Shown here: positions 18,231 through 45,025 of the stretch, piece after piece
Layout of the letters: the number at the start of each line of letters is the position of its first letter
Numbering within the stretch: the stretch's first letter is position 1
Source of the DNA: a virus
Taxonomy: Duplodnaviria; Heunggongvirae; Uroviricota; Caudoviricetes
Strand: one strand, 5' to 3'
IMG/VR virus record: IMGVR_UViG_3300033405_000012
Location: 14,142-78,141 of that record
DNA length: 64,000 nt
Position numbers and translations under genes: made by a program
Notes under the pieces: model-generated
What the model was told of the DNA's origin: nothing
Database searches by the model: none
What the model saw: the letters and a program-made list of their open reading frames with translations, nothing else

Positions 18231-18375
18231 GCCCCACACTTTCCATATCAACGAATTCCGGCAGGGCCATAGTGATTTCAGACGCGCGCCGGCAATTTTG
18301 TGTTGTGTGACGGGCTGACGCTTTCCACATCAACGAATCCCGGCAACGTCAGAGTGATTCCAGACGAGCGGCGGC
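18231..18375 (-). promoter_or_regulatory. two tandem copies of a ~55-bp promoter-like repeat upstream of the SNF2 operon
   Basis: Core on the coding strand: GGAATTCGTTGAT[G/A]TGGAAAG[T/C]GT...CACT[A/C]TG...CTG[A/G]AAT. A third copy lies at 4141-4200. Confidence 0.4.
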
Positions 18376-21049: not shown

Positions 21050-21940
21050 CTAGGGTTCCTTGTCGGGCGGCTCCTTTCGTTTGCGATCTCGGTTCAACAC
21101 GGCTTGGCGCTGGACCTCGACGCTCTCGCGGTCCAGGTGCAGCACCCAGGCGAGCGCTGCCCGCCAGGCGTCGGTCAGGGTCTTGCACCGCTCCGCCACC
21201 AGGACCAGAGCGGCGCGAGACGGTTTCTCGTACTCGGCGATCACTTCCTTCCACGGCCGGCCGTGCGCGACCGGCTTGAACTCCGCCGTGAAGAAGGCGT
21301 CCAGCTTCCCTTGCCTGACGCCCTCCTGGAACTGCTTCAGGAAGGCTTGGGCGGTGGCCCTGAATTCGGTGACGGGCATCGTGCGGGCGGCATCGTAGAA
21401 CTGCGGCTGGAATTTGTACGGGATGCGGGCCAGCTCGTAGGCCGAGCCCAACAGTATCTCGCCACGGTCCACCGCAGGCTGGAAGTCCTTTCGCAGGTTC
21501 AGCAGCCCCAAGGTCTCGCTCACCCACCTGGGGCTTTTGTGCAGAACGCGGGCGCTCAGTTCTGCCAGCGTGACTTCCGGGCGCGCCTCCATGATCCTCT
21601 TGATCTGCCGGGCGAAATCGGTGGGGGTGGTTTCCGGCCGGAGGGCATTCGCCTGTATCTGGATCGCCAACAGGTCGTTGTCCGTCAACTCCTTCACCAG
21701 GGCCGGCACCGGGGACCGTCCTGTCTCGCGGCAGGCGGTGGCCCGATAAAGGCCGTCTGCCACGTCATACTTCCCGGGAAACCGGGCCGAGGGCCGCACC
21801 AGGATCGGATTGAGGAGGCCATGAGCCGACACCGAATCTCGCAGCTCCAAGTAGGCCACGGACCCGCGGGCCACCAATCGGAGCACCACGGGCGGGTCCA
21901 CAAGCTGCTCGGTCGGAATCCACTTCAACTCGTCGTTCAC
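21050..21940 (-). CDS. ParB-like nuclease domain protein, first gene of the leftward operon
   Basis: N-terminal ParB-N-like segment LLNPILVRP...YDVADGLYRATAC. 296 aa. Confidence 0.6.
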   Translation of the reverse strand: MNDELKWIPTEQLVDPPVVLRLVARGSVAYLELRDSVSAHGLLNPILVRPSARFPGKYDVADGLYRATACRETGRSPVPALVKELTDNDLLAIQIQANALRPETTPTDFARQIKRIMEARPEVTLAELSARVLHKSPRWVSETLGLLNLRKDFQPAVDRGEILLGSAYELARIPYKFQPQFYDAARTMPVTEFRATAQAFLKQFQEGVRQGKLDAFFTAEFKPVAHGRPWKEVIAEYEKPSRAALVLVAERCKTLTDAWRAALAWVLHLDRESVEVQRQAVLNRDRKRKEPPDKEP

Positions 21941-22084: not shown

Positions 22085-24763
22085 GTGATGCCCACCGTCC
22101 GTGAAGCACTCGACAAGTTCCTCCGTGCCCGGCAGACGCCGGCCAACGCCGATCTGGTCGGCCGCTGGGGCGTCCAGATGGAGACCCAGGTGAACGTGGC
22201 GGTGGGCAACGGGGAGCCTGTGGCGGGCAAGCGGTCCACGTTCACGAACGGCACCGACACATGGCATTCGATCCGGGTGCCCAAGGATGCCGACTCCGAG
22301 CCGAACTGGGAAGATTACGAGCTTCGGTACTCCTTCACGGAGCACGCCGAGGGGATTGGCTGTACGGGCTGGGACTGGCAGGCCCGCTGCTCCCGCTGGG
22401 TTGCCTTCGACTTCGACGCCTTGACCGGCCACGCCAAGGGCGTTGGCATCGAGAAAGACGCACTGGAAGCAGTCAGGCAGGCGGCTACGCAGCTTCCCTA
22501 TGTGGAGGTGCGCAAGAGCACCGGCGGGGGCGGCATCCACCTCTACGTCTATCTGGACAGCATCCCGTGCGAGAACCATACGGTCCACGCCGCCCTGGCC
22601 CGCTGCATCCTCGGCATGATGTCCAGCGAGTGCAACTTCGACTTCGCCTCAAAGATCGACTGTTGCGGCGGCGTCATGTGGATATGGCATCGCAAGATGA
22701 CCGCCGAGAACGGCGGCCTGAGCGTGATGAAGCCGGCCGCCAAAATGCTCACGGCGGCCGACCTGCCGGCCAACTGGCGAGACCACATCGAGGTGGTCAC
22801 GCGCAAAAGGAACAAGGTGCGGATCAACGAGGTGTCGGACGACGACCTCGACCCGTTCGAGGCCCTCGCTGCCGCGCAAAAGATCATCCCCCTGGACGCC
22901 AGCCACAAGGCCCAAATCGAAGCCCTGCAACGATCCAGTTGTACGACGCTCTGGAATCCCGACCACCACCTGCTGCAAACGCACACCTGCGCCCTGCAAG
23001 CGCTGATGGACGGGCCGGAGGCGAAGGAACTGGGGCTCGTCGGCGCGTTCAAGACCAGCTCCCAGGGCCGGAATCCCGGCAACCCAAACTGTTTCCTCTT
23101 TCCGCTGCCAAACGGTGCCTGGCGTGTGTTCCGTTTCTCCCCGGGCGTCTCGGAAGCCGAAACCTGGAGCCAGGACGGCCAAAGCTGGACAACCTGCTAC
23201 TTCAACCGCCGGCCGGACCTGGCAATCGCCGCGAAGGCGCATGGCGGGATGGAAGACCCGGACAAGAAAGGCTACGTCTTCCAAAGTCCCGACGACGCCA
23301 TGAAGGCCGCCAAGGTCTTGGGCCAGCCCGACACGGCCATCGACCCGATGTTCGAGGGCCGCAAGACATTGCTGAAACCGCACAAGGACGGCCGCTTGGT
23401 GGTGGAGATCGAGCGTGCCAAAGGGGACGCCGACCAGCCGGAGCCCAAAGGCTGGCTCGCCAAGAAGAGCAAGTGGGTCCGCGTCTTCGAGACCACCGTC
23501 CGGGAGCAAACGGACAACGCGGACGGCGAGACCGCGAAGTACGACAACCTCCTTCGCGCCGTCAAGACACCAGCCAAACAATTCGTCGGCTGGTCGCTCT
23601 TTGAGAAGAACGCGAAGGAATGGGTCTATCACCCCGGCGGCAACATCAAGATGCGATTGCAGAGCCTTGGCCATGCCAAGGATGAAGCCGAGTGCATCAT
23701 GGGCACCGCGCTGGGGGAGAGTTGGAAACTCGTCAACCTGCCCTTCCGCGAAGAGTACCCAGGCGGCCGGCAATGGAACCGGGATGCTGCGCAATTCAAG
23801 CACCAGCCCGCCGTGCTGGGCCCCGACGAGAAGCCGCGCCATCCGTATTGGGACATGATCTTCGACCACATCGGGCTGGAATTGACGCCCGTGCTCCGGG
23901 CCCTCCCGTGGGCACAGAAGGCCGGCATCAAGACGGGAGCCGATTATCTGCGCGCCTGGGTCGCCTGCGCCTTCCGCGACCCCTTCGAGCCGACGCCGTA
24001 CCTCTTTCTCTTTGGCAACGAGGACAACGGCAAGAGCATCTTCCACGAGGCGCTGATGACCTTGGTGACAAAAGGCGTCATCAAGGCCGACAAGGTGCTC
24101 AAGACGCGGGGCGATTTCAACGGAGAACTGGCGGGGGCCGTCATCTGCGCCATTGAAGAGACGGATATGTCCAGGGTGCCCGAGGCCCTGCCCCGCATCA
24201 AGGAATACGTCACGGCTCGCACGCTGGCCATCCGCGAGATGCGGATGAACACCTACCAAATTCCCAACACGACACACTGGGTCCAAACGGCCAACTTCCA
24301 GAGCCACTGTCCCGTCTTTCCTGGCGACACGCGAATCACCGTCATCGCGGTGTGTGACCTCCTGGAAGAACGGAAGATCGCCAAGCCGCTCCTGCTCGCC
24401 AAGCTGGACGAAGAAGCCCCGCACTTCCTGTATACGCTGATGACCCTGCAACTGCCGCCGATCATCGGTCGGCTGCGGCTGCCGGTGGTCGCCACGCCGA
24501 GCAAGTTCCGAACCCAGGAACAGAACAAGAGCCCCTTGCAGCATTTCCTCGACGACTTCTGCCTTGTCAAGAAGGACGCCCGCATTCGCTTCGGCGAGTT
24601 CTACGACGCCTTCCAGAAGACGCTCGACGCCAGCGAAAAGGGCGAATGGTCCCGTAAGCAGGTCAGCCGGAATCTCCCAAACCTTCACCAGGTTGTGAAG
24701 AGCAACGGCGAGCGATTCGTTCCCAACCTGGCCTTCAAGGCACCGGAGACGGGCCAATGTTGA
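22085..24763 (+). CDS. bifunctional primase-polymerase (Prim-Pol) fused to D5/P4-like SF3 helicase
   Basis: Prim-Pol motifs VAFDFDA and STGGGGIHLYVY. C-terminal Walker A FLFGNEDNGKS. 892 aa. Confidence 0.85.
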   Translation: MMPTVREALDKFLRARQTPANADLVGRWGVQMETQVNVAVGNGEPVAGKRSTFTNGTDTWHSIRVPKDADSEPNWEDYELRYSFTEHAEGIGCTGWDWQARCSRWVAFDFDALTGHAKGVGIEKDALEAVRQAATQLPYVEVRKSTGGGGIHLYVYLDSIPCENHTVHAALARCILGMMSSECNFDFASKIDCCGGVMWIWHRKMTAENGGLSVMKPAAKMLTAADLPANWRDHIEVVTRKRNKVRINEVSDDDLDPFEALAAAQKIIPLDASHKAQIEALQRSSCTTLWNPDHHLLQTHTCALQALMDGPEAKELGLVGAFKTSSQGRNPGNPNCFLFPLPNGAWRVFRFSPGVSEAETWSQDGQSWTTCYFNRRPDLAIAAKAHGGMEDPDKKGYVFQSPDDAMKAAKVLGQPDTAIDPMFEGRKTLLKPHKDGRLVVEIERAKGDADQPEPKGWLAKKSKWVRVFETTVREQTDNADGETAKYDNLLRAVKTPAKQFVGWSLFEKNAKEWVYHPGGNIKMRLQSLGHAKDEAECIMGTALGESWKLVNLPFREEYPGGRQWNRDAAQFKHQPAVLGPDEKPRHPYWDMIFDHIGLELTPVLRALPWAQKAGIKTGADYLRAWVACAFRDPFEPTPYLFLFGNEDNGKSIFHEALMTLVTKGVIKADKVLKTRGDFNGELAGAVICAIEETDMSRVPEALPRIKEYVTARTLAIREMRMNTYQIPNTTHWVQTANFQSHCPVFPGDTRITVIAVCDLLEERKIAKPLLLAKLDEEAPHFLYTLMTLQLPPIIGRLRLPVVATPSKFRTQEQNKSPLQHFLDDFCLVKKDARIRFGEFYDAFQKTLDASEKGEWSRKQVSRNLPNLHQVVKSNGERFVPNLAFKAPETGQC

Positions 24764-25438: not shown

Positions 25439-26050
25439 ATGCAAACCTATCCTGGCCTTCTACACCTCAACGGCAACTTGCTCGTCTCCGTAGACCTGGA
25501 AACGACCGGCCGCCAGCCCGGCTACCACGAGATCATTCAGATTGCCTGCGTGCCGTTGGGGCCCGATCTCAAGCCGGCACTCAGCCTACGGCCCTTCTAC
25601 ACCGAGATCAGGCCGGACTTCCCGGAGCGGGCCGAAAAGCAGGCCATGTGCAAGCACGGCGTCCCGATGGAGCAACTGCTCCTCCACGCCCCGAGCCAAG
25701 ACAAGGTGCGCGACCTGTTCGTCGAATGGTTCGAGTGCCTGGACCTGCCCTTCAAAAAGAGCCTCGTGCCGATGGCCCACAATTGGGCCTTCGAGGCGTC
25801 GTTCCTAAAGGCTTGGCTGGGCGTTGAACTCTTCGAGAACCTCTGGTACAGCCACGCCCGCGACGGAATGCTGCTGGCCATTGCCATCAACGACAAGGCG
25901 GCCATGCGGGGAGAGGCGATTCCTTTCAATCGAGTCGGCCTGGGCTCGCTCTGCAACAAGTTCCACGTCGTCAACGTCAACGCCCATGACGCGCTGGCCG
26001 ACGCCCTGGCTGAGGCGGAAGTGTATCGGGCACTCTTGCAAATGTATTGA
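25439..26050 (+). CDS. DnaQ-like DEDDh 3'-5' exonuclease
   Basis: Exo I VSVDLETTG. Exo II HNWAFEASFL. Exo III HDALADA. 203 aa. Confidence 0.85.
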   Translation: MQTYPGLLHLNGNLLVSVDLETTGRQPGYHEIIQIACVPLGPDLKPALSLRPFYTEIRPDFPERAEKQAMCKHGVPMEQLLLHAPSQDKVRDLFVEWFECLDLPFKKSLVPMAHNWAFEASFLKAWLGVELFENLWYSHARDGMLLAIAINDKAAMRGEAIPFNRVGLGSLCNKFHVVNVNAHDALADALAEAEVYRALLQMY

Positions 26051-26058
26051 GGTGCGCT

Positions 26059-27054
26059 ATGGGCTCGGTTCTGACGCTCGACAACTGGAACCAGATCATC
26101 CGGCAGATCAACAACCTTGCGCAGAACCCACCGGCCGGCTGCAACGGCGTGGCGACCCTCCAGCCCGTGACCGCCCCGCACCGCTGGTCGAAGACCGACA
26201 TCCAGCAAGTCCAGCAGGCGCTTCAGGGCATTTGCCCTTCGGACACGTTCGCCAGCCCAATCCCGGACCTGTGGAAGCAGAAGACCATCGACGACATCAA
26301 TGCGGCCATTGCCAACGGCTGGTGCAACTGCCAGCAACAGACGCAGGTGGCCTACAAGGTCATCAAGATTCACGGCTGCGAGAATTACCCGCAGTGCGGC
26401 GATCCCAGCCTCTTTCCACCGGACCCGCCATCCTACGCGACGCTAGTGCAGACGATGAACCTGGGCAGCCAGGCCCTCAACGCCAGCAACCTCTACTACC
26501 AGGCCCATGATGCCTACTGTGCTGCCTCAGCCGCGCTGCTGGCCGCCCAAAATGCCATGCCGCCTAATCCCACCCTCATCACCTCGCTGCAATCGACCGT
26601 CAACACACTAAAGACGAAGATGACCACGCAGGCGCAGTTGGCTGACAACTACGCCAACCAGTCGAACGCAATATGGCTTGCCTACCCGGTTTGGCCAGCC
26701 GTCCTGGGCATGGGCGTCAATATGTGGTTCATGGTAATGAACATCACGCCACAACCCTGGATCAACCAGCCTTGCGGTTCGCAAATCGGCCCCCTTAGCA
26801 ATAGCTGGACGCTCTCCTTCCAGTGGAACGGCGCGGGCCTCTACACGAACTGCTGCTACGGACTCTTCACGCCGAACGGCATCCCGTACATGAACATCAT
26901 GGGTTCGATTACACCTGTTGCCCCGACGGCTGCCGTCTTCTGCTGCGGCGGCTGCCTGAGCGGCGGCAGCCAAATGTGCTGGGACGCCATCAATACCACC
27001 AAGTACGACGGCTTCACCACCTGGCAGACCGTTAAGCGCTACTACGCGAACTAG
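26059..27054 (+). CDS. Cys/Asn/Gln/Trp/Thr-rich protein of unknown function
   Basis: 332 aa with >16 Cys (CCYG, CCGGC), many N/Q/W/T. Composition unlike all neighbours. No signal peptide, no recognisable motifs. Confidence 0.55.
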   Translation: MGSVLTLDNWNQIIRQINNLAQNPPAGCNGVATLQPVTAPHRWSKTDIQQVQQALQGICPSDTFASPIPDLWKQKTIDDINAAIANGWCNCQQQTQVAYKVIKIHGCENYPQCGDPSLFPPDPPSYATLVQTMNLGSQALNASNLYYQAHDAYCAASAALLAAQNAMPPNPTLITSLQSTVNTLKTKMTTQAQLADNYANQSNAIWLAYPVWPAVLGMGVNMWFMVMNITPQPWINQPCGSQIGPLSNSWTLSFQWNGAGLYTNCCYGLFTPNGIPYMNIMGSITPVAPTAAVFCCGGCLSGGSQMCWDAINTTKYDGFTTWQTVKRYYAN

Positions 27055-27064
27055 GAGGCGAACC

Positions 27065-27844
27065 ATGCGGCCAGTCATCGAACCGGACGGGACCATCCGC
27101 TACAGCGAGCCGGCAACCAAGGTGCCTGCTGGTTGGACGCCGAGCCCGGACAACCCGCAAGTCTACTTGCCGCCGTGGCAGCACTGCGCCCACCGGCTGC
27201 TGGGCTTCGACAACAGCACGATGGAGCTTACTCCGACGTGTCTGCTCGTCGGGGAGCCCGTCGCCATTTCTGCCTGCGTCGGCTGTGCCAATCGCAAGGA
27301 CCCTGGGCCGGACCACTACCGGAACCTGGACCCCAACAACATCGTGCAGGTGGAATACCCGCGTCCAGGGCTTGGCCCCGCGTGGCAGTATGAGGTCGTC
27401 GCAGAGCTAGGGAAACCAGAACAAATCACCAAGCGGCAAGGCACCGTCACGCCACGACTCATACCGCCGCCGCCAGCAACCTTGCAGCCCGTCCCGCCGG
27501 CACCCGAGTCGCAGCTTTCGGAGCTTGGGCTCACCCTGCCACCGGCCCAGCCAACCGATCGGCGCGTTCACTTCGAGCCGGACGGCAGCATCGTCTACGA
27601 CAAGCGGGAAGGCGAATGGGAGCCGCCGCGGAACATCGACGGTTACGCACGCGACCCCGACAACCCACTGCGGTTCACCCCGCTCTGGCCGGAGTGCCAT
27701 TTGCGCTACCAGATGGCGGTCCGGTATCCCAACTGCGGCTGCATCAACGTCATCATGCGATGCAACAACCCGGCGGCCCCGGAGTTCGCCGAACGGCTGG
27801 CCTACACGACCTGCGAGAAGTGTCCCCACCGGAGCGCCACATGA
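27065..27844 (+). CDS. protein with two tandem copies of a novel Cys-containing ~90-aa domain
   Basis: Repeat 1 IEPDGTIRY...PDNPQVYLPPWQHCAHR...C..C. Repeat 2 FEPDGSIVY...PDNPLRFTPLWPECHLR...C.C...C...CEKCPHR. Confidence 0.6.
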   Translation: MRPVIEPDGTIRYSEPATKVPAGWTPSPDNPQVYLPPWQHCAHRLLGFDNSTMELTPTCLLVGEPVAISACVGCANRKDPGPDHYRNLDPNNIVQVEYPRPGLGPAWQYEVVAELGKPEQITKRQGTVTPRLIPPPPATLQPVPPAPESQLSELGLTLPPAQPTDRRVHFEPDGSIVYDKREGEWEPPRNIDGYARDPDNPLRFTPLWPECHLRYQMAVRYPNCGCINVIMRCNNPAAPEFAERLAYTTCEKCPHRSAT

Positions 27845-28398
27845 GCACGCCAAAGCTGCTCTGCGATACCTGCCCCGAGGGCCAAGGCACCCTCATTCCG
27901 ATGCCGACGACAGCCGGGCCGTCCGTCGCTCCTCCCGTGGCTTACATCGTCTACACGGGTGGCCCATACAGCTATCTCTACCGCATGGTCGAGGCCGCCA
28001 TTCCGCCGGACGCGGACCTCAAGCACGGCCGCCCTAAGTTCGCGGACGATGGCTCGTTTGAGTACCCGCCCGGTGACGCCGAGGTGGAAGATCTCCAGGG
28101 CTACCGGCGGAATGCCGAGAATCCGCGAAGGTTCCATCCCGCGTGGCCAGACTGCCTCTGTCGGCAGCTAAGCGTCTCGGTCAGCAACCGAATGCTCGTC
28201 ATTGCCGGCAAATGCTTTCAGCCGACGGCCGGACGGCTCAATCGCACCACGACCTTGGACGAGTGCCAGAAATGCCCATACCGGTACGCTTCGCGGCCAA
28301 TCGCCCCTCCGGGAGCGGCCGAGACAGCCATCAAGGCTACTGGCAAGACGGACGAGCCGGTGTCCCCGCCTTGTTCTGCCCAAGAGCGAACAGCTTGA
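27841..28398 (+). CDS. protein with a third copy of the same Cys domain
   Basis: FADDGSFEY...ENPRRFHPAWPDCLCR...C...CQKCPYR. ATGA overlap with the previous gene. Confidence 0.6.
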   Translation: MSTPKLLCDTCPEGQGTLIPMPTTAGPSVAPPVAYIVYTGGPYSYLYRMVEAAIPPDADLKHGRPKFADDGSFEYPPGDAEVEDLQGYRRNAENPRRFHPAWPDCLCRQLSVSVSNRMLVIAGKCFQPTAGRLNRTTTLDECQKCPYRYASRPIAPPGAAETAIKATGKTDEPVSPPCSAQERTA

Positions 28399-28440
28399 AA
28401 ACCTTGCACTCGGCACCAGCTTGCTGCCAACCTCCTTGGC
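28386..28440 (-). pseudogene. degenerate duplicate of the 3' end of the SPFH gene (31701..32276)
   Basis: Minus-strand translation ...AECKVFKLFALGQNKAG matches the SPFH C-terminus FAECKVFKLLTSQADKAG. The DNA repeat recurs at 31741-31790. Confidence 0.45.
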
Positions 28441-29133
28441 CGGCGGCGGGCCGCCGGGCTGTGACGCGATGCGACGCCTCGGCGCGTCGAACATCACGAT
28501 AAGCAACAACTCGTCGAGAGCCCGCGGGGCACGCCGACCCAAAGGCACTTTGGCGACACTCCACCGCGAGATCGACCAGCCAGGGACCGCACTATGTTCT
28601 GCCAAAGAGCTACGGTGGCGTATGGGGCACCGATGGCAATGCTGTTCTGAACTACTGCGGACGCCCCCAACGCTCGTGCTAACCCATTGGCAGACAATAC
28701 TTTGCGAATCACCCAGTACACTTCCAGGTTGGAACCGCCAGCACTCTCGATTCCCGCGGCTTGACCCGTAAGTGGGACCGGCTAAAATTGCGGCGTTTAT
28801 GCCCCGGAGTAGGTTGGCACATGATGCGGGCTCCTGGAAGGATTTGGGACGCTGCGGCCTTGGAACTACGGAGCCTGGAGGTTTGCCCCGCCAGCAGTTT
28901 GACCGCCCTTGAACTGGCTGTTGGCGGTGTTCGGAGCGCGCGATTATCGCCACTTGTGGCAAGACTTGCCGCCGGGAGGAGTTGCTCCACGGGGGTACTT
29001 GTCCGCATGGGGTAAAGTAAAATGGTATCCGTGCTGTCTGAACTCCCCGGCGCGCGCCAGAGATTGAACGGCTATCGCACTTGTCGCGTAAGCCTCATCC
29101 CTGTCGGCACGCTTCAAACTCTGGAGGTGCGTC

Positions 29134-30570
29134 ATGGCTCGGCGACGTTCTATTCTCGCGGTGATTCTTGCGGGCGCGTCGTTCTGCGTCGTGCTCCCCG
29201 GTTGCCAACGACTGGACATCGAGCCGCCTGAGCCGGAAATATCCGACTCGAAAGGATTCGACGTTTCAGGCAAGTCACCGTCAACCTTTTCGCTCCCTGT
29301 CCAACTATCAATCAGCGAGGCTCAACAAATCTGCAATCAGAAGGCACCGGCTCATTTTCAGCAGACGATAACTCAGGGGGTTCAGGTCACTGGATTCGAC
29401 CATGAACATGTGGACCTTTCTGTGGATCGCAAGCCAATCACACTAGCGGCGGCTGCTGGCAATCGCGTTTCCTTTTCGATTCCGTTTTCTGGCGGCGCGA
29501 GTTGGCATGGGCAAACCCATGTTGGGCCCATTCATGGACCTTGGGTTCAAGAGGACGTTAATTTCTCCGGGAATATGCATGGAACTATTGGGTTCAGAAT
29601 CAACCCAGACTGGTCCATTACCCCGGATGCGCACGTTGAGGTAACAATAGATCAAGCTAAACTGGGCTTTCTTCACATCCTTAGTTTCGACGTGCGAGGG
29701 AAAGTTCAGGACATCGTTAATCACTCTGCGGTTGGACCGGCAAACCAAGCATTACATGCTGTTCTTGAGAAACTTCCAATCCGGTCGCAGGCTGAGAGCG
29801 CATGGAAGCAAATGCACCTTTCGAGGCGGCTGCTTGAATCGCCCAGTATTTGGCTGAATGTGCAACCGAAAGAGGTGCGCGTGAGCCCGGTGACCGTAGA
29901 AGGTGGTCTAGTCAAGGTGGCAGTCGGAGTCGCTGCGGCTACCACAGTCTACGTTGACAAATCGGCTCCGTCTGTTCCTCCGACTGCCCTCCCCGGACTC
30001 GTTATTGATCCAAATCTCTCTAACAGGTTCCTCATTACTTTGCCCGTTGTGGCTTCGCTCGACGAACTTCTCGTCAAAGCCAGAGAGGCGGTCAACGGAA
30101 AAGAGTTCACGGCGGAAGGGGTCAGTATAAGAGTGTCGAATGCCGCGGCGGAAGCTAGGGGTGCTTGGATTGTCCTGAGTTTCGACTTTTCTGCGTCGCA
30201 TGGACGAGTTCGGGCGAAGGGGAGGTTATTTGCTGTCGGGAGGCTACAGTACGATACCAAGTCCGAAACCGTCAGCGTTTCGGAGCTTGACTACGACATC
30301 GGAACTAAGAACGTTCTGCTGAAAGTAGCGAACTGGGTGCTCAAACCCCGCGTCTTGGAATCGGCCTCGAAGGACGCAAAGTTAAAGGCTCCACCGTTGC
30401 TCGCTCAGGCGAAAGACAAGGCTAATCAGTATTTCGCCGCGCTAAAAGCCCCAGCCGGAATAAAGCCAACGCTACAGGTGGACAAGCTCATTTTGGAAGA
30501 CGTTCGTCTGAGCAGTGGCGAAATGTTCCTTCTGCTGAGGGCCGAGGGCACAAGCCTGCTTAAGCTTTGA
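29134..30570 (+). CDS. lipoprotein (possibly DUF4403-like)
   Basis: Signal peptide with lipobox MARRRSILAVILAGASFCVVLPGC. 478 aa. Lower GC than the rest of the phage. Confidence 0.65.
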   Translation: MARRRSILAVILAGASFCVVLPGCQRLDIEPPEPEISDSKGFDVSGKSPSTFSLPVQLSISEAQQICNQKAPAHFQQTITQGVQVTGFDHEHVDLSVDRKPITLAAAAGNRVSFSIPFSGGASWHGQTHVGPIHGPWVQEDVNFSGNMHGTIGFRINPDWSITPDAHVEVTIDQAKLGFLHILSFDVRGKVQDIVNHSAVGPANQALHAVLEKLPIRSQAESAWKQMHLSRRLLESPSIWLNVQPKEVRVSPVTVEGGLVKVAVGVAAATTVYVDKSAPSVPPTALPGLVIDPNLSNRFLITLPVVASLDELLVKAREAVNGKEFTAEGVSIRVSNAAAEARGAWIVLSFDFSASHGRVRAKGRLFAVGRLQYDTKSETVSVSELDYDIGTKNVLLKVANWVLKPRVLESASKDAKLKAPPLLAQAKDKANQYFAALKAPAGIKPTLQVDKLILEDVRLSSGEMFLLLRAEGTSLLKL

Positions 30571-30780
30571 AGACACACCGCGATAGATGTCTCACTCGAA
30601 CGGGAAGGGGGACACTCCTATTGCTCGGCATCGTCCTTGGCCACGAGCCCAAAGTATTAGCATGTAGGCAGGGCCGGCGTTGGTTCCTAATCCAGAAGGG
30701 CCAGTTCGACCCATGATCGGCAATTCACCCAGGAACGTGAATCATCGTAACCCTCCAGAATGTTGAGCGGAGAGTAGAGT

Positions 30781-31509
30781 ATGGCCAGCCAATCCGAAGG
30801 GTCAAACCGCGCTGGCAAGGAGCCGGCGCGTGTTACAGACTTACTTGACAAGTACGGCAGCTATCGCCGGGCCGCGCAGAAGAGCGCAATCCTTGTGTTG
30901 GTCGTCAGCATTACGCTCGCTGCACTGAGCCGCAGCCCGACGTGGACACTGGACCCCCCGGGGCTCGGCCCGGTGAAGGTCGCATCACCCCCTGTGGGCA
31001 CTGCGAGCCAACTCATGCCCGTCTACGGCCCGTTAGTTGTCTGGCTTGTCTGTGTCCACTTCTACTGCGTTCTTTCGGCTGCACTTGGGTTGCGAAAGGC
31101 CATTCGGCGGGACCGGGGTGAGACGGAATCCAATCGGGGCGAGGACGCGATTCAAGAACTACTTAGCCCACCGTTGCTGGCGCTCTCAGCGAGGCAGAAT
31201 AGCTGCCTGTCGCGCCTGACCGCATACTTAGCCGTTTGCATTTGGTGCATCACGCCGTTGATCTGTTACATCTTCCTGTTTTCCGACTTTTGCTTGCTTC
31301 GGTTTGACGGCAAGGTGATTACTCGGGGCTACGAGTTGTTCTACACGTTCCGGGGCTGGACGGGCATTTGGCCGACCCAGCACCACGGAGTTTCTGGAGG
31401 CATACCTCCCGTTTTCCCTATTTGGCAGCCCTGGTTTTACGCTGCATTTCTTCTCCATACACTTTTCCTCACGTTGGATGCCATCCGTCGCATCCTCACC
31501 GCGACTTGA
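30781..31509 (+). CDS. polytopic membrane protein
   Basis: 242 aa with four or more hydrophobic helices (ILVLVVSITLAAL, LVVWLVCVHFYCVL, LAVCIWCITPLICYIFLF, FYAAFLLHTLFL). Confidence 0.6.
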   Translation: MASQSEGSNRAGKEPARVTDLLDKYGSYRRAAQKSAILVLVVSITLAALSRSPTWTLDPPGLGPVKVASPPVGTASQLMPVYGPLVVWLVCVHFYCVLSAALGLRKAIRRDRGETESNRGEDAIQELLSPPLLALSARQNSCLSRLTAYLAVCIWCITPLICYIFLFSDFCLLRFDGKVITRGYELFYTFRGWTGIWPTQHHGVSGGIPPVFPIWQPWFYAAFLLHTLFLTLDAIRRILTAT

Positions 31510-31620
31510 CTGAGTGGATGAAGACCATCTGAATGTTGCAGGGTCAGGCGGCAAGACGCTCGTGGCCGGCTGGCCCGGCCCCTGGATGCCCTCGACCCGA
31601 TTGGCGGGTCAGCGTTACGG

Positions 31621-31700
31621 AATCGCGGAACCGGGCAGTCGGGGTCAGGCCCCAGGGCTGCCACGCGCTCCTGGCGAATGGCCTCGGCCCTCGCCCACGA
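31621..31700 (-). pseudogene. remnant of the 3' end of a small-acidic-paralog gene
   Basis: Minus-strand translation ...EAIRQERVAALGPDPDCPVPRF, preceded by a stop. Near-identical DNA to 32688-32730 (MQTIG copy 1 C-terminus). Confidence 0.4.
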
Positions 31701-32276
31701 CTACTGGTAAAACTGGTGAGACGACATCCCCGCCTTGTCCGCCTGGGAAGTCAACAGCTTGAAGACCTTGCACTCGGCGAAATCCACCAGCTTGCTGCGG
31801 ACGACGTGGACGCCGAACTGCCGCAGTTCCTTGCGGACCTCTCTGGTCAGCGTCGTCGTCAGGCTGTCATCCGCAATCCCGTTCATTATCTCGTCGTAGG
31901 TGTGCGTGGCCACCACGCGAACCACCGCGGATTGCGTCAGATCGTTGATCGTCACGTCCACGTCCCAATTCACGCGACCGATGGCGTGGACGACATCCCT
32001 GATCTTGTAGACCACGAGGGTCTTGACCACCACCTTGCGACCGTCCTTCGTGGCAAGCACCTGGTCGGGAATGGCGATGGTCTGCCGGGCGGTCACGATC
32101 ACCTCCACCTCGGTCGTCAAAGGCCAATAGAGATGGAGGCCGGGATTCAAGGGCTTGATTTTCCTGCCCCGCACCCACTTCACCCCGCCGTGGGTTGCCC
32201 GCACGATCAGGATGTGCGGGACGAACCGGTAGATCGTCTCGACTAGCTGACTGAGCCAAGCAAAAGCGGATTCCAT
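31701..32276 (-). CDS. SPFH/band-7 domain protein
   Basis: PGLHLYWP...VEVIVTARQ...TKDGRKVVVKTLVVYKIRD...TINDLTQSAVVRVVATHTYDEIMNG fits the SPFH core pattern. Confidence 0.6.
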   Translation of the reverse strand: MESAFAWLSQLVETIYRFVPHILIVRATHGGVKWVRGRKIKPLNPGLHLYWPLTTEVEVIVTARQTIAIPDQVLATKDGRKVVVKTLVVYKIRDVVHAIGRVNWDVDVTINDLTQSAVVRVVATHTYDEIMNGIADDSLTTTLTREVRKELRQFGVHVVRSKLVDFAECKVFKLLTSQADKAGMSSHQFYQ

Positions 32277-32297
32277 AGTTGCCTCCCACCGAGGTGC

Positions 32298-32594
32298 TTA
32301 CCGCGTCTCGCCATTCGTAATGAACCCATGCCAGTGACCGCGCTTGCTGGCGTCGATCGACGGAGTGATCGACAGGACCGCGAAGTCCTCGTCAGAGCAG
32401 ATGGTCCAAACGAAGTCCTCTCGCCCGTTGGCATGGGCTCGGATGTACGTGTCGTCAATCGCCTCGTGCCCCTTGTGATGGAACGCGATACCCAGCCGCT
32501 CTATCCGGCAGTGCGGGCACAAGAAGGTGAGGCCGACATGCGGCCCTCCCTTCTCGAACGCGAACCAGCGCGGGTCTAGGGCAAGGAGCTTCAT
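32298..32594 (-). CDS. zinc-ribbon protein (DUF6527-like signature)
   Basis: CPHC, then SITPSIDAS...HWHGFITNGE resembles the PSI...HxHGFIxNG pattern of a conserved prophage family. 98 aa. Confidence 0.5.
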   Translation of the reverse strand: MKLLALDPRWFAFEKGGPHVGLTFLCPHCRIERLGIAFHHKGHEAIDDTYIRAHANGREDFVWTICSDEDFAVLSITPSIDASKRGHWHGFITNGETR

Positions 32595-32607
32595 GGCGCA
32601 TCCATCA

Positions 32608-32662
32608 GGGCAAAGAAAAGGGCATCCGGGCGCTGGTCGCCCGGATGCCCTTTCTCACTTCT
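32608..32662. terminator. strong bidirectional intrinsic terminator
   Basis: 13-bp perfect stem GGGCATCCGGGCG-CTGGT-CGCCCGGATGCCC. TTTCTCACTTCT follows on the plus strand and CUUUUCUUUG on the minus strand. Confidence 0.6.
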
Positions 32663-32676
32663 GAAACACCTCCACG

Positions 32677-32859
32677 TTACGGGATTGGAACCGGGCAGTC
32701 GGGGTCGGGCCCCAGGGCTGCCACGCGCTCGGCGCGAATGGCCTCGGCCGCCGCCCGCGCCTGGCGAATGTCCTGGTGGACATCCTCCGGGTCGCGGCCT
32801 TGGGCCTCGATCAGGGCCATGTCGCTATGGGTTGGCTTGGGAGCGCCAATCGTCTGCAT
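32677..32859 (-). CDS. small acidic protein, tandem paralog 1
   Basis: MQTIGAPKPTHSDMALIEAQGRDPEDV... 60 aa. Separated from the next copy by TAA-GCC-ATG. Confidence 0.5.
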   Translation of the reverse strand: MQTIGAPKPTHSDMALIEAQGRDPEDVHQDIRQARAAAEAIRAERVAALGPDPDCPVPIP

Positions 32860-32862
32860 GGC

Positions 32863-33045
32863 TTACTCCTTCTGGTTCTCGTAGACCCACCGCGGGCCCT
32901 CGGGCGGCATTGCCGCCCGGCGGACTTGCTCCGCAGCCCGCGCATCTTGGACATCCTGCTCCACGGTCGCCGGATCGCGGCCCTGCGCCGGGATCAGCGC
33001 CATGTCGTCGTGGGTCGGATGGGGATTGCTGCCGATTCCCTGCAT
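32863..33045 (-). CDS. small acidic protein, tandem paralog 2
   Basis: MQGIGSNPHPTHDDMALIPAQGRDPATV... 60 aa. Confidence 0.5.
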   Translation of the reverse strand: MQGIGSNPHPTHDDMALIPAQGRDPATVEQDVQDARAAEQVRRAAMPPEGPRWVYENQKE

Positions 33046-33048
33046 GGC

Positions 33049-33243
33049 CTAGAGTCCCTTCCACCCCTGGCCGTCGTAGACGGACGCCTTGTTGCACTCG
33101 GGGGCCTTCACGTCGCCCGACTCCGAGAGCGACTCGTTGAGGTCGGTCCGACGATCGGTGTGGTCGCCCGTGTCCCCTTCCGCCTGGACGAGGATCGTGT
33201 CGAGCGTACCGTTGCCCTGTTTCGGGGGTCCGATGGTCTGCAT
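33049..33243 (-). CDS. small acidic protein, tandem paralog 3 (diverged C-terminus)
   Basis: MQTIGPPKQGNGTLDTILVQAEGDTGD... 64 aa. Confidence 0.45.
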   Translation of the reverse strand: MQTIGPPKQGNGTLDTILVQAEGDTGDHTDRRTDLNESLSESGDVKAPECNKASVYDGQGWKGL

Positions 33244-33329
33244 TGCAATGCACCTTTCGTTGTTGTGAACTCAAAGACTGAAACGCAACTCACGCACTCA
33301 CACCCGCGGCATTCGACCGCCGGATGGCG

Positions 33330-33512
33330 CTACTTGCCCTTGCGGTGGTGGGCAAACTCACGCAGACGCCGAGCCAACGCGACCTGACGATTGGTTGTCG
33401 GGTCCTTGTGCTTCTCCCGCATGAACTGCGACAGGCTCTCGCCTGCTCGCTTGGCCTTGGCAGTCAAGGCCCCGGGGTGCTTGATCGCACCCTGAATCCA
33501 CTTCTCGGCCAT
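33330..33512 (-). CDS. small basic protein (DUF3008-like)
   Basis: MAEKWIQGAIKHPGALTAKAKRAGESLSQFMREKHKD... 60 aa. Confidence 0.4.
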   Translation of the reverse strand: MAEKWIQGAIKHPGALTAKAKRAGESLSQFMREKHKDPTTNRQVALARRLREFAHHRKGK

Positions 33513-33546
33513 GTTGTCACTCTTTCTGGTTGACGTTACGGGTTCG

Positions 33547-36500
33547 TTACGGGCTCTGCAAGAACGCCGTCCCGGCACCCACCTTCTGTCCGTTCGTGTC
33601 GTACTTGAAATCGAACACCGCGCCGTCGGTCTTGTCCGCCGTGACGACTTTCGCCTTCGTGCCATCGACCATCAGCGTGCCGCTCACGACCTTCATCAGG
33701 TCGCTCAGCATACCGGGGCCCGAGCCAGTTGAACCGCCCGAGCCGGAGCCCGAGCCGCTGCCACTGGACCCGCCACTGCTGCCTCCTTGCGTCGAGTCCT
33801 GGACCTTGCACCTGGAAATGTCGATCTGCACGTCCTGGTTGTTGCCCAAGGCCAGCATCGACCGCAGGTAGCCAAACTGCGGCGGCTGCTGGTTGGGGCT
33901 GCTCGAATCCGTGAACTTGGTCTTGGCCAAGTCGATCACCAACTCGGTTGGGTCCGGCGTAACGGTCATAGGGTCCGACTCCGGCAACCGATACGCCTGG
34001 AGATTTGCGATTGGCCGGAGCACCGCCCACACAGCCTGAAACTGCTCGGCCGTCGCAAGCTGCTGGAACTGGAACTCCAAGTCCGTTGGAGTCCGGTCGC
34101 CCCAGTCACTCCGCCCGCGGAACACCACGTTCGGGCCGCCGACAAAGACGGTGCTAGTGGACGTAATCCCCGACGTATCGCCCACGGGCAAATTGCCGCC
34201 CACGCCAATTCCGATCCCGCCGCCCCCAGCATTGTTGCTGTCGATGTCCGTTTGGGGCGGCCAAGTGGTCGTGACCGGTAACGCCGCAGGCCAGTAGAAG
34301 GGGTCCTGCGCCATCGCACCCGCCCTGATCGGCGTCGCGCACTCAAACTCGATGCAGTTCTCGGCCGAATTGTAGGCCGCCCGCTCAATGACCACCGGCA
34401 CCGGCCCGGAGGCGATGTAGCCCGGGGCATTGAACGTCACGCAGTCGAACGCCTCCAAGTTCAACTTCGTCAAGTACGAACGGAACTTCACGCGCTTCCA
34501 TGGGTTCGAGAAGCGGATCAGCCAGAACGTCGCCATCTTCAAGACGACATCCGGCTGGTTGAAGATGTACCAGTCGTAATCCTTCTCGTAGAGACCGTAT
34601 TTCGCTACGTTGTGGCGCAGGATCATGTACTGCGTCGAATCGGCTTGCGTGCCCGCGAACTGGCCGCCGGGAACGTAGCCCAGGTTCCAGCGGACGTTCA
34701 TCTTCGTCACGATGTCTTCGGTTCTGGTGTACTCGATCTCCATGCCGTGCTCGGCGTCGATGTCGCTGACCGTGATCGCATCCACCGGGGTCGGCTGCTC
34801 TGGCAGGTACTTCAGGTAGAGGACGTTATCCTCGACCCAAAGCGCACACCGCGACTGGAAGCAAATCTCCTTGAGAAGCTGAAGGACGTTCTTCCGCGAC
34901 AAGAGCGGGAAGTTCGCCGGGAAGGGGGCCATCTTCGTCTTCACGTAGTTGAAGCTCGTCGGGTCCCAGGTCAACTCGGTGTAGTTGTCGATGATGTAGG
35001 TCAGGATGTCCACGACGTTCGGGCCGACGCTCGACTGGAAGGTGACGTACAGCTCGTCCGACCAGCCTTGAATCTGCATCCCGTTGCCGTCTGTGTACCA
35101 AATGGTGCTCAAGGGCTGCGCGAGCTTGATCTGGACCGCCGTGATGCTGCCGTAGTTCTGCGTCTCGATGGTGTAGTAGTTGTTCGGCACCACCGTCAAG
35201 CGCCGCACGCCGTCGATCATCTGGTAGGCTTTCACGGCCAGAACCGTGCCCGGCGTGATCGAGGCGATGTACGTCACGCTCGGATCGGTGTAGAGCCGCA
35301 CCTTCGAGCCGGCGTCGGCCCAGAACTGCTTGACGATCGGCCGGGTATCGACCCAGGCAGGCGCTTCCGGGTACGTGTAAATGTCCCATCCCTGCCAGGT
35401 CATGTTGCAGGGGTCGTTGAAGTCCCCGCAGCCGGACCCGCACGGCACGGGCGCGTGATAGTAGAACGGCTCCGGCGGCATCGGCGGCGGCAGACAGACG
35501 CGCGGAGTCGCGTAGGGGTACGGCCCGTAGCCCGCCTGCTCCTGCGCCGCCAAGACCTCGTTCTCGACCTGCGCGTTCACCAACGCTTGGAGGTAAGGAT
35601 TCTCGCGGCTGGTGCAGTAGAACTCTTCACCCTTGAAGTAGCCCGTAAAGAGCCCGTCCTTGATCTGAATGGTCACGGTCTTGTTCTGCGGAAAATCCTC
35701 GCCGCCAAGAATCTGGATCGGGTTGGGGCCCTCCCCAAGCAGGTTGGCAAGGGTGATCTGCTCCTGCCGGCGCGCAAGGGCGCATTCCTCTTGTGCCTGC
35801 ATCCGCGCAAGCTCAGCCCCGATCTTGTCATAGATCGCGTTGGCCTGGTCGAGGTATTGCTTGGACTTTACCGCATCAACCAGCGACCAACATTCCGACA
35901 CAACCAGCAGGAAGTTCGCGTGGCGCGACTCGCGGGCGATGGTCCGCAGCTTCTTGCGGTCCACGTTCGTGCCGTTCTCATAAAGTGGGCTACCCAGGTA
36001 CTCTTCCTGGCCCGCCAGGATGCCGCACCCCGTCAGCGTCGTCCCTTCGACCGCCATGTTGATCTTCAGCGCCGGGTAGTCGTAGACCAGCCCGAAGATC
36101 GCCGGCCATGCCTTGCCCACCATGTCGGATGGGATGTAGGGGAAGTTTCCCTCTTCCGCCGAGAACCCGAACTCCTTGTCCTCGATATGCGACAGCACCG
36201 TGACCTTGACCGTCCGGTCGCGCTCATTCCAACTGACCGGCGTGTTGATGAGGCCCGCGAACACCAGGAACTTGTCGTCCAGGTCCAGGCCGTTGAACCA
36301 CTGATACAGCCGCACGGGTTGCTTGTGGAGATCGTACTTGTCGAAGATCGCCTTGATCGCCCCGTCCGTGTCGTCCAGCGTGAGGCTGATCTGCTGCGAC
36401 GGGCTGTTCTGCATCGTAACGTCAATGGCGTCGTCCAGATCACCGAGTTCCACAATGGCACCCCGGATCACTCCGCCGCCCGGGATGGGAATGTCGCGGT

Positions 36501-37020: not shown

Positions 37021-40000
37021 TTACGCCGAGACCAACTCACCCTCGAACTCGAAACTGCCGGTGAACTGGTTGCGGTCGTCTTCGACCACCGGCTCGTTCG
37101 GCTGGGTGATGATGCCCGTCCAGCGCCGCCGTTCCCAGTCCCAAATGCCGATCTCCTGCCCGATGTGGTTCCTGATGAAATCCAGCAGGGCTTCCGCCTG
37201 CATGGGAGACAGGCCGGAGAACGTCAGCGCCAGGGTCTCGATCTTCGGCCACATCGGGTCTGCGTAGACGATCAACGTGCCGCCCCGCGTCTCACGGCTG
37301 ATGCGGTTGAATTGCAGCCGGTTCTTGTCGCCGAACTCCGGGTTCCGCAGCGTTACGTAATCCTGGACCGGACCCGCGGCCGGGTAGACGAGCGTGAAGT
37401 CGCCCGGGGCCGAGGGACTGGGCAAGCTGGCACCGCTCAGGGTCCGCGGCGGCGGTGCCGGATTGCCGGTGGCCCCTGCGCCCACAAACGGCGTGTAGTT
37501 CGCCTGCATCTGGTCCGCCGTCTTCAACGGCAGGATGTAGACGAACGCCTGATCCACCTGGACGGCATCCGTGGCACCCAAGAGGCGCACCACAGCCACG
37601 ACCGCCTGGTCGCCCACCGTCAACGGGTCCGTCGTCGGCTGGTTGGCGTGCGTTACCGCGATCAACTCGCCGAGTGGAATCGCGTCGGTCTGCGAGCCGA
37701 CCTTGTTCTCGATCGCCTCGTCCCCCAGGGACAAGGCATCCGTGGCCCCGGCCGCTTTCGCCGTCGCCCGCAAGATGGCGACCTGCGCCAACTCGCCGAA
37801 GGACAAGCGGTTCCCGGCCCCCGAGGTGCCATGCTGGATGACGGCGCTCGCCGAGTCTTGCAACCCGGTGAAAACTAGCTCGAAATCGCCGGTCCATCCG
37901 CCGGCACCCAGGCCGGCATACGGATTGTACTGCTGCTGAGAGGACTGAACCGGATCAATCGCCGACACGTAGATCGGCTGGATGACGATGTTCCAATCGG
38001 CCAGCGCCAGGGCATCCACGCTGCCGACTTGCCAATGCTTCGTCTGCTCGACCGCGTTCGTATCGTTCGGCCAGATGTGGTCCATCCCCAGCAAACGTGC
38101 CGGCGACTGATGCAGACCAACTTCATCGGCAAAACCGACTTGTTCCGTGGCGTCCGCGCGGAAAGTCGCATCGCGTCCGGTGCCCCCGTCCGAGAGACTG
38201 AGCGTGTCCCACGCCAAAAGATGGAACGTGCTATCGCGCGCGGCCGGCGTATCGGCCACCGGAATCGCATCGACAACCGGTAGGTGGAACGTCGCGTTGC
38301 GGCCGTTGGCCACGTCCGCCACGGGCACCTCATCGGTCGCCTGCGGCCGGGTGAGCTTATGCACCAGGGCCGCTTGCGTGAACGACAGGGGTTGGACAAC
38401 GTACTTGCAACGGGTCAGAATGCTGTTCTGACTGAGCGCCAACGCGCTCGTCGCCGCTGCCGAGCGGACGTGCCGGGCATGGGCCGTATCCCCAAGCTCA
38501 AGGCCGTCCTGGGCCGCCACGGGATACGCCGCCATCCAGTGCGTCTGGTCGTTGACCGCGAGGTAAGTTGTCGTTGCCGATGTAAAGGGCCGCCCGTAAT
38601 ACGGCAGATCGGTCAAGACCACCGTGTCCAGCGCACTGGGGCAATGGGACACCTGCGCGCTGGCCTGATGGTCCAGCGCCAAGGCATCGAGCCCATCCGC
38701 CAGCACGGCGGGAACGCGCACCGGCATCAGCGCCAACTCGCCGAAGGCACAAGCCGTCGCGCTACCGTTGTTCGCCGTGACCAGCAGCCGATAGTAGGTG
38801 TACGAGCCGGTCGTCGCCAGTGGATAGTGCCGGTATTCGCCGGCCGCCCACCCGGTTTCCGAGGGAATGGCGCTGGACAAGGTAGTCCAGGTCGCACCGT
38901 CCGCCGAACCTTGCAGCGCGAACGCCTTCGGCATCTGGCCGTCCGGGTCGCCGGCAAAAGGAGCCCACAGGGCGAAGGAATCCACCTCGGTGGGTGCGGC
39001 GAACTGGTACTGCCACCAGCACGGGAAGCTCGCGGCCTGGGATGCGATACCCGTCTTGTAGTCGTTGTCGAACGCCTGATACGCGGTCGCCGACGAATCC
39101 GACGAGCTTGCCACGCCGCTCGGCGTCGTGTTGCTCGTCATGGTCGGGACCAGCGTGGCCGGTCCGTACAGGAACAATTCGCCCAGCGACACAGCATCCG
39201 GGCTGCCGTTGTTGGCCGTCACCCGCAGGCGGTAGTAGGTATACCAACCGGGGGTGCCCACCTCGAAGATGCGCTTCTGCCCGACCTGCCAGTTGATCTC
39301 GCCGGTGACAGTCGCCAGGACGGTCCAATTCGTGCCGTCCGCCGAGCCTTCCAGCCAGAAGTCGCACGGCATTTCCGAGGAGTAGCCGTCCGCGCGGCCC
39401 CACAGCGCGAAGGCCGTGACCATCTGCTGTTCCGGGAACTGGTACTGCCACCAACACGGAAACTGCGCCGCCAGCACGCTCATGTGGTCGGCGTCGTTGC
39501 CGCCGTCGAACACGCGGTAGGCCGGGAAGCTCCCCGCACCGAACAGGGCCGAAGAACTCACCGCACCCAGGGGCGTGGTGGCATCGGACATGATCGGCGT
39601 CAACGGAAGCCGGATGCGATTGATCGCCAGGCTGTTGGTGTCCGACACTGCCAGCGGGTCGAGCGCAGGGCGCAGGGCGCTGGCGACCCAACCCACGGCG
39701 CTGTCGCCCAGCGTCAAAGCGCTGGTGGCGGGGTGGGCGAAGCCGTACTCCGTCGTCGCCAACTCGATGCACGCCATGCAGGCATCAGCCGTGCCAAGGC
39801 GCGCAGTGAAGGCAGCCGCACTCGAAGTGCTGGGAATTACGTGTTGTGTGCCGGCCGTATCGCCAAGCGAAAGGGTGTCCGTAGCCGCAGCACTGGCGGA
39901 AACAACCGGTGTCGGCGCGCCGACCGTCACCAGAGCGCTGCTCGCCTGCATGGCGTAGTCCGTGGCGACATAATTCGCCGAACGTGCCACGGTGGCAACA

Positions 40001-44887: not shown

Positions 44888-45025
44888 AGAGGTGCCACGC
44901 CGCAACTCACGTCGCAGTTCCGTGGCAATGGACCCGGCCGTCTGGCAACGGGTTAGAGAACCGAGGTGCCACGCCGCAACTCACGTCGCAGTTCCGTGGC
45001 GATGGACCTGGCCGTCTGGCGGCCG
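44888..45025. repeat. tandem duplication (~75-bp period, two copies) at the tape-measure gene 3' end
   Basis: GAGGTGCCACGCCGCAACTCACGTCGCAGTTCCGTGGC[A/G]ATGGACC[C/T]GGCCGTCTGGC occurs twice. Confidence 0.6.

Follow-up and report, generated by a model that had tools for sequence, protein, structure and literature searches.

The stretch of DNA analysed here (the window) comprises 64,000 nucleotides (nt) of a tailed-phage genome of ~64% GC (IMG/VR record IMGVR_UViG_3300033405_000012, positions 14,142 to 78,141), and our interest centres on a low-GC island lying at the point where two oppositely oriented blocks of genes converge. The plus-strand block (22.1-28.4 kb) carries the primase, an exonuclease-like gene, a gene for a 335-amino acid (aa) protein and two paralogous cysteine-rich genes referred to here as Cys1 and Cys2, and the structural block occupies the minus strand from 31.7 kb to the end of the window, with an SPFH/Band-7 gene at its island end. 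Between Cys2 and SPFH there is ~3.27 kb of foreign DNA (between 28427 and ~31700) which encodes a DUF4403 protein and a small membrane protein, and which is bordered by remnants of gene 3' ends, that of an SPFH gene on the left and that of a small acidic gene on the right. We think that this is probably a horizontally acquired two-gene cargo, received at the early/late convergent junction as part of a patch from a diverged relative and with a function that would alter the host envelope.

The composition of the island is clearly foreign, since both the GC content at third codon positions (GC3) and the codon usage of its genes deviate from those of the phage backbone. GC is 0.529-0.582 in the 1-kb intervals starting at 28501-30501, compared to a mean of 0.639 (standard deviation 0.016, minimum 0.597) in the remaining 1-kb intervals of the 64 kb. 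The DUF4403 gene has a GC3 of 0.56 and the membrane gene one of 0.69, versus 0.74-0.89 in 17 backbone genes, and the two have the lowest likelihood under backbone codon usage among the correctly framed genes. An initial annotation made from the sequence alone had described a ~3.3-kb segment less GC-rich than the backbone, and this agrees with both the sliding-window GC and the codon statistics. It had also remarked on a ~700-bp non-coding stretch, and this is borne out for the left end of the foreign DNA, where there is no codon-phase signal, no Pfam match for seven open reading frames (ORFs) and no Rfam match (a permissive Rfam search over 27.5-33.5 kb gave only a weak match on the terminator-like hairpin described later). 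ORFs inside this stretch, as well as antisense ORFs, were considered as genes and rejected as they have no Pfam matches. Comparisons by tblastx and blastn gave no meaningful similarity between the stretch and any related locus, and its folding z-scores (-0.7 for the plus strand and -2.8 for the minus strand, 20 shuffles each) indicate no convincing structure. It contains a single sigma-70-like promoter match 345 nt 5' of the DUF4403 start codon; three such sites were found in the region compared to 1.3 +/- 1.3 in shuffles, using a scan that does not cover planctomycete promoter rules.

Both edges of the island are marked by partial copies of genes whose intact versions lie to the right of it. 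On the left, 28337-28427 aligns with 31701-31798, the stop and last ~32 codons of the intact SPFH gene, at 75% identity with one 7-nt gap (alignment score 73 versus a maximum of 27 in 300 shuffles). On the right, 31613-31702 aligns with 32675-32762, which takes in the last 28 codons, the stop and a further 2 nt of the small acidic gene acid60a, at 87-89% identity (alignment score 119 versus a maximum of 33 in shuffles), and this remnant abuts the SPFH stop codon (31701-31703). Sequence homologous to the right repeat is also found upstream of SPFH in four related loci (L046, L095, L096 and L097). The initial annotation had recognised both copies; that of the SPFH end, given as 28390-28440 with the intact version at 31741-31790, is real and belongs to a longer repeat than had been thought, and that of the acidic-gene end was located correctly at the right edge. 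Its reading of the duplicated ends as the footprint of an insertion or illegitimate recombination event at the SPFH/Cys junction is upheld by the foreign composition and by the empty site described below, but the repeats are evidently not a target duplication made in place, because identity is 75% between the two SPFH copies and 87-89% between those of the acidic gene, and because the Cys2 allele appears to have been imported too; on their sequences, the copies have diverged like those of different phage lineages.

We used the SPFH protein to retrieve related loci (30 from IMG/VR, 57 from metagenomes and five from genomes) and mapped the window's proteins onto these. The expectation that SPFH would be joined directly to the Cys genes in relatives was met in 37 loci, where a convergent Cys gene, or an exonuclease gene where there is no Cys, lies within 150 nt of SPFH, and the direct overlapping junction is seen even in relatives whose SPFH is 65-82% identical to that of the window. 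A further 13 loci have 0.4-4.4 kb of other DNA between SPFH and Cys, nine have >1 kb of unrecognised DNA after SPFH, and none of the about 90 related loci has the DUF4403 protein, the membrane protein or the DUF6527 protein encoded to the right of SPFH in the window.

One of the 37 loci, L094, is a 1126-nt contig from JGI sample 3300033402, which also yielded a locus 100% identical to the window (L031). L094 contains Cys1, followed by a Cys2 homologue and the 3' end of SPFH without any intervening DNA, and SPFH and Cys2, which converge, have ~60 nt in common, read from opposite strands (L094 67-125, equivalent to 28337-28398 and 31701-31762 in the window). We note that the right SPFH copy of the window (31701-31762) retains an in-frame Cys2-like tail (TTGKTGETTSPPCPPGKSTA, then stop) which is nearly identical to that of L094. 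Positions 1-1099 of the L094 reverse complement align with 27330-28427 of the window (80% identity over 1.1 kb), with homology stopping at 28427, and positions 996-1126 align with 31695-31825 at 96.9% nucleotide identity over 131 nt; 104 nt that are single-copy in L094 are therefore present twice in the window. Identity varies along the alignment, being 100% over 27330-27429, then 96, 90, 85 and 88% over the rest of Cys1, 61-76% over Cys2 and the left repeat (62% for the Cys2 amino acid sequence), and 97% again from the SPFH stop. It is because identity to L094 falls over Cys1, is low in Cys2 and recovers abruptly at the SPFH stop that we favour the import of a patch, and the Cys2 allele was probably imported together with the island.

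Under this history, a recipient like L094 would have received a ~4 kb patch from a diverged relative, made up of a different Cys2 allele, the last ~30 SPFH codons, the cargo and, from the acidic gene of the donor, its final 28 codons. In the donor, the cargo would have been directly downstream of the acidic gene, having displaced SPFH except for its last ~30 codons. The left crossover would have been homologous and within Cys1, and the right crossover illegitimate, with codon -29 of the donor acidic gene joined to the base after the recipient SPFH stop, and as an outcome two gene 3' ends would each be present as a pair of diverged direct repeats. Surviving mosaic joints are usually near stop codons, and two of the three novel joints here are no more than 3 nt from one (31701/31702, and 2 nt after the acidic-gene stop at 31613-31615). 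Two points count against this account: L094 is only 1.1 kb long, with no more than 131 nt of overlap between its right arm and the window, and the donor arrangement (acidic gene, cargo and SPFH remnant) was not found in any collection, and for this reason the order of events is one that we infer.

The same structure might have been reached in other ways. A transposon, insertion sequence (IS) or integrative element inserted in place with a target-site duplication, the repeats having decayed later, would also leave direct repeats around foreign DNA, and an IS110 transposase is found at the same site in one relative (L022). However, the island has no transposase, integrase or recombinase, the repeat search gave no inverted repeat pairing its two ends, and the repeats of 91-104 nt are far above typical target duplications. 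We regard such an insertion as decidedly improbable, as the SPFH copies have only 75% identity and Cys2 is equally diverged from L094, both pointing to whole-patch import, and the right end is a fragment of a different (acidic) gene which simple insertion leaves unexplained. Another candidate is a tandem duplication in this lineage of 1062 bp, with the SPFH stop at one end of the unit and codon -29 of the acidic gene at the other, followed by replacement of the left copy's interior with foreign DNA; this too yields the joint between the acidic 3' end and the SPFH stop and both direct-repeat pairs in the right order. It is improbable nonetheless: the remnant acidic-gene end is 88.6% identical to the window's own gene compared to 87.5-89.8% to the genes of three other phages (L046, L095 and L096) and has bases in common with these that the window's own copy lacks, the diverged Cys2 allele is unexplained, and three separate illegitimate events would be needed in one lineage.

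Patch import also has to be set against the possibility that nothing was gained. Phage genomes commonly undergo deletions, and in principle the remnants can be read as scars either way, so that the segment might be ancestral in the family and deleted in the relatives. The low GC3 and deviant codon usage, the absence of both genes from the about 90 related loci, the partial gene copies flanking the segment, and the direct overlapping junction in even the more distant relatives make this very improbable indeed. An assembly chimera of co-occurring strains, for which the presence of the closely related L094 strain in the same sample might provide the material, is scarcely credible, as the repeats are too diverged for a mis-join and contigs from four assemblies match the window at 99.9-100% identity over 26528-31939, 27316-31865, 29509-32722 and 30416-31804, with all of the joints spanned (the assemblies are JGI 3300033402, ENA ERZ27256877, and Logan SRR9711195 and SRR9711196; these may share reads and their independence is uncertain). 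The coordinates of the island, its flanks and the main phage genes are listed in Table 1.

Table 1. Features of the island, the genes on either side of it and the phage backbone (positions are those of the window).
Feature	Position	Strand	Characteristics
Left repeat, SPFH 3'-end remnant	28337-28427	-	Stop and about 30 codons, with a 7-nt deletion
Apparently non-coding stretch	28428-29133		706 nt at the left end of the foreign DNA; GC flat over the three codon phases
Sigma-70-like promoter match	28761-28788	+	TTGACC-16-TAAAAT, 10/12 positions; consensus match only
DUF4403 protein	29134-30570	+	478 aa; Pfam PF14356, E 1.5e-66
Membrane protein	30781-31509	+	242 aa; small unnamed family; four long helices
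Right repeat, small-acidic-gene 3'-end remnant	31613-31702	-	28 codons and stop, with a 2-nt insertion
Cys1	27065-27844	+	Cys-rich paralog of Cys2
Cys2	27841-28398	+	185 aa, CxxC-rich; final 62 nt overlapped by the SPFH remnant (opposite strand)
Intact SPFH/Band-7 gene	31701-32276	-	191 aa; Pfam Band_7, E 1.7e-20
DUF6527 gene	32298-32594	-	98 aa; Pfam PF20137, E 2.1e-5
Intrinsic-terminator-like hairpin	32617-32653	-	Perfect 16-bp GC-rich stem followed by UUUUCUUU; inverted repeat; fold z-score -5.8
acid60a, small acidic gene	32677-32859	-	60 aa; one of three tandem paralogs
DNA polymerase	6318-9026		PHROG profile
Helicase	16038-18014		PHROG profile
Primase	22085-24763		PHROG profile
Tail protein	37021-41070		PHROG profile
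Tape-measure protein	44953-48690		PHROG profile
Major head protein	52756-54189		PHROG profile
Portal	56256-58157		PHROG profile
Two methyltransferase-like and two ParB-like genes	727-1491, 18349-19713, 9749-10735, 21050-21940		

Judging from the related loci, the SPFH/Cys junction is a recurrent cargo site, or hot spot, in this phage family. A parallel is found in L003 (on the same contig as L052), where the cargo at 8577-10710 consists of an FmdE-like protein and a DUF1559 prepilin-type protein. It is flanked by a duplicate of the final 281 nt of SPFH, which has 77% identity to the resident copy and an open frame throughout, an architecture shared with the window. Besides the IS110 transposase of L022, which is at the SPFH junction, cargoes following SPFH include an AAA ATPase and an S8 subtilase with several further ORFs after them (L007, 8898-16447) and an ORC/CDC6-like ATPase (L009, 1224-7695). 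In the last of these, other ORFs resemble by eye a C5 DNA methyltransferase and a Vsr-type endonuclease. In L096 (546-641) and L097 (613-708) the cargo starts after SPFH codon 32, and cargo can therefore also disrupt SPFH in this family; beyond the truncated gene, the DNA of these loci is lower in GC for at least 5-6 kb and carries unrelated ORFs.

The cargo of the window is a conserved two-gene cassette which is found in bacterial contigs too. The membrane protein looked like an orphan in a word-indexed homology search, which returned almost nothing for it, but an exhaustive HMMER search of 1.84 billion proteins recovered 22 cluster representatives of its family with a best identity of 46%. 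A 19-sequence alignment gave an AlphaFold2 (AF2) model with four long helices (predicted local distance difference test, pLDDT, 86.4; predicted template modelling score, pTM, 0.82); the initial annotation had suggested four to five transmembrane segments. By the positive-inside rule, both termini and the 105-145 loop of the model would be cytoplasmic, and the periplasm would be faced by the two loops that carry the conserved motifs of the family, SRSP following helix 1 and GY-L-Y and P-YP-WQ-W preceding helix 4.

A DUF4403 gene adjoins the membrane gene in seven of the nine other contexts that could be assessed, being directly upstream in L040, L041, L043, the P0009 contig, and L102 plus a second contig, and adjacent and convergent in L044. 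Since it is an amino-acid permease, rather than the membrane gene, that comes after the DUF4403 gene found with P0002, the pairing marks a subfamily. The membrane partner is the better conserved of the two, with 45% identity between the window and L040 compared to 23% for DUF4403. Several of the neighbourhoods are of a mobile or defence type: L040, which has an island-like GC of 54%, has AbiEi/AbiEii, a DDE transposase, and a tyrosine integrase with phage-type nucleotide-metabolism genes as neighbours, L041 has TrwC relaxase fragments, L043 a DDE transposase, and the P0009 contig DUF4365 and HEPN proteins.

The match of the DUF4403 protein to PF14356 is effectively full length (profile positions 2-424 of 425) and far above the gathering cut-off (225.3 versus 28.3 bits), and its gene is preceded by a GGAGG ribosome-binding site 8 nt upstream. 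The N-terminus (MARRRSILAVILAGASFCVVLPGC) consists of RRR and a hydrophobic stretch, and reads as a clear predicted signal or anchor. It should be noted that the lipoprotein with an LPGC lipobox proposed in the initial annotation does not conform to the PROSITE-type rule ([LIVMFWSTAG](2)-[LIVMFYSTAGCQ]-[AGS]-C), as the -2 position is Pro in VVLPGC and the -1 position is Phe in GASFC; lipidation is thus possible but unsupported by the lipobox rule. The protein is highly diverged: none of five other DUF4403 proteins to which it was compared exceeds 27% identity, and the word-indexed search, covering 5.8 billion proteins, gave no match other than the protein itself and two at 21-25% identity. For the family, a pseudodimeric BPI/TULIP-like lipid-binding fold has been predicted (Levine 2019, PMC6791001), along with a periplasmic and mostly acyl-anchored location, probably at the outer membrane, and the possible need for a partner; the TULIP fold with a lipid cavity is a prediction made at the level of the family and not for the window's protein.

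If the membrane protein is in the inner membrane, its periplasmic loops could meet an envelope-anchored and lipid-binding DUF4403 protein, and together the two would alter the host envelope. Such a change may block the adsorption or DNA entry of competing phages, as superinfection exclusion or receptor masking. We rank superinfection exclusion first as a plausible leading guess, with envelope-lipid handling to the benefit of the infected cell a close second, because there is defence-like cargo at the same site in relatives and because other copies of the cassette have mobile or defence-type neighbourhoods. The initial annotation had read the gene pair as a superinfection-exclusion or abortive-infection moron, a reading which this cargo and these neighbourhoods back only indirectly. 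We consider it quite unlikely that the cassette represents a hitherto unrecognised mobile two-component envelope system, carried by phages and further mobile elements of planctomycetes and other diderms, in which a TULIP/BPI-like protein changes the outer envelope and so excludes competing phages; if true, DUF4403 would be given its first function, and superinfection exclusion or defence would gain a new mechanistic class.

A number of results speak against an envelope-exclusion role for the acquired cargo, among them the non-canonical lipobox. Neither island protein has a PADLOC, PHROG or NCBIfam match, and no matches were found by tblastn for the DUF4403, membrane and SPFH proteins in 50,697 GenBank phages or for the two island proteins in the PLSDB plasmids. 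Nor was anything found in IMG/VR scans with DUF4403 and with the membrane-family alignment (IMG/VR and metagenome scans with Cys2 were likewise empty). The protein encoded upstream of the membrane gene in L042 and L103 is not recognisable as DUF4403, even by a custom hidden Markov model (HMM), and some neighbourhoods of the cassette are metabolic (P450 and DyP in L102) or of a metal-resistance type (ArsP and a cation-efflux protein in L044). There is no terminator-like structure after the membrane gene (31509) and the only promoter is the one consensus match, and no integrase was found among ten window ORFs tested. Some of these results bear on the alternative that the cassette was acquired in the same way but serves to handle lipids of the envelope or hydrophobic molecules, in an auxiliary role or one in host fitness, and does not act against other phages, an alternative that we consider possible, if somewhat unlikely. 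This is favoured by the lack of matches to known defence models, by the copies beside the P450 and DyP-type enzymes and beside the metal-resistance genes, and by the prediction of a lipid-binding TULIP pseudodimer that may need a partner (PMC6791001). The several copies found amid AbiE, HEPN, DUF4365, integrase, transposases and TrwC, and the defence-like cargo of relatives at this phage site, lean the other way, though neither is decisive.

To the right of the intact SPFH gene, the DUF6527 gene looks like a second and separate small insertion outside the island. It has no tblastn match in the related loci and a backbone-like GC3 of 0.81, and in L046, L095, L096 and L097 there are only 66-87 nt between the acidic gene and the downstream SPFH. 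The hairpin between the DUF6527 gene and acid60a looks like an intrinsic terminator placed after the acidic gene. There are three tandem acidic paralogs (60, 60 and 64 aa) at 32677-33243 on the minus strand, all starting with MQ(T/G)IG, and the two 60-aa genes have a 95-nt repeat in common (72% identity); copy number varies in relatives, with 0-3 matches per locus. On the other side of the island, the first ~95 residues of the 335-aa protein (26047-27054; residues encoded by 26047-26340) are 45-54% identical to a gene in several relatives (L006-L018), in which this match is directly after the 1052-aa tail gene, and the N-terminal domain therefore occurs at two genome positions in the family. 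The phage further has a DNA methyltransferase-like protein of the D12 class, another of the N6_N4 class, and two ParB-like proteins, a ligase domain is present among the window ORFs tested, and no tRNA was found in the window.

The hosts of this phage family are probably Planctomycetota, of the Pirellulales or Planctomycetaceae, because relatives are found in contigs of such metagenome-assembled genomes (MAGs) and because one relative, L003, encodes a DUF1559 protein, a family which is greatly expanded in Planctomycetota. Two relatives (L035 and L036) are embedded in long contigs, one of 698,710 bp from a Pirellulales MAG and one of 1,068,209 bp from a Planctomycetaceae MAG, and others are on small contigs of three further planctomycete MAGs. 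The placement of L035 and L036 suggests either prophages or phage contigs joined to host DNA, and it is this that gives the family its host assignment; in both cases the phage relatives are near contig ends.

The island is the result of an ordinary kind of event, the acquisition of mosaic cargo, which is documented unusually cleanly here and in a poorly known group, as to our knowledge the phages of Planctomycetota are almost unstudied. It offers a worked example of cargo gain: the joints are defined at the base level, the sample itself supplies an empty site, the probable patch has one end that is homologous and one that is illegitimate, and the hot spot extends over the family. What is new is the cassette of DUF4403 and its membrane partner, and its carriage by a phage. 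DUF4403 is widespread and known only as a predicted lipid-transfer fold, and is now linked to a specific membrane partner and to mobile elements, and the pair provides concrete genes for functional tests. In the GenBank phage records there is no match for the two cargo proteins or SPFH, nor for the 7.5 kb around the island (blastn of 26500-34000).

Compared to Pfam DUF4403 (PF14356), the window's protein is unusual in being phage-borne, very diverged and without a canonical lipobox, and in having a four-helix membrane partner, which the consulted passages of PMC6791001 do not mention. It resembles the family in its full-length match, in its similar size, and in an N-terminal hydrophobic signal followed by a short linker.

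Envelope proteins that act in superinfection exclusion include T5 Llp, phi80/N15 Cor, P22 SieA and T4 Imm/Sp. The cassette is like these in consisting of accessory genes for envelope proteins which lie outside the core modules and are dispensable in relatives. It differs in that no sequence or profile similarity to them was detected, and the DUF4403 protein is much larger than those lipoproteins and belongs to a family with a predicted lipid-transfer fold. Hot spots for cargo and defence genes are known in temperate phages and satellites such as P2/P4, and the SPFH/Cys site is similar in being one fixed position with unrelated cargo in different relatives, including defence-like genes. It is unlike them in that the window has no integrase among the ORFs tested and most of the cargo has no recognised defence function.

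The nearest comparison is with the morons and mosaic junctions produced by illegitimate recombination at gene boundaries in lambdoid phages and mycobacteriophages (the Hendrix and Hatfull literature). Classical morons carry their own promoter and terminator, whereas the island has one weak promoter match and no terminator; the patch differs further in having probably also brought a different allele of a backbone gene (Cys2), and the site in being a family-wide hot spot with many unrelated cargoes. In other respects the likeness is close, as the island places genes of foreign composition between conserved genes that are without them in close relatives, and its joints are at or near stop codons, with partial gene copies as scars and a probable homologous exchange on one side.

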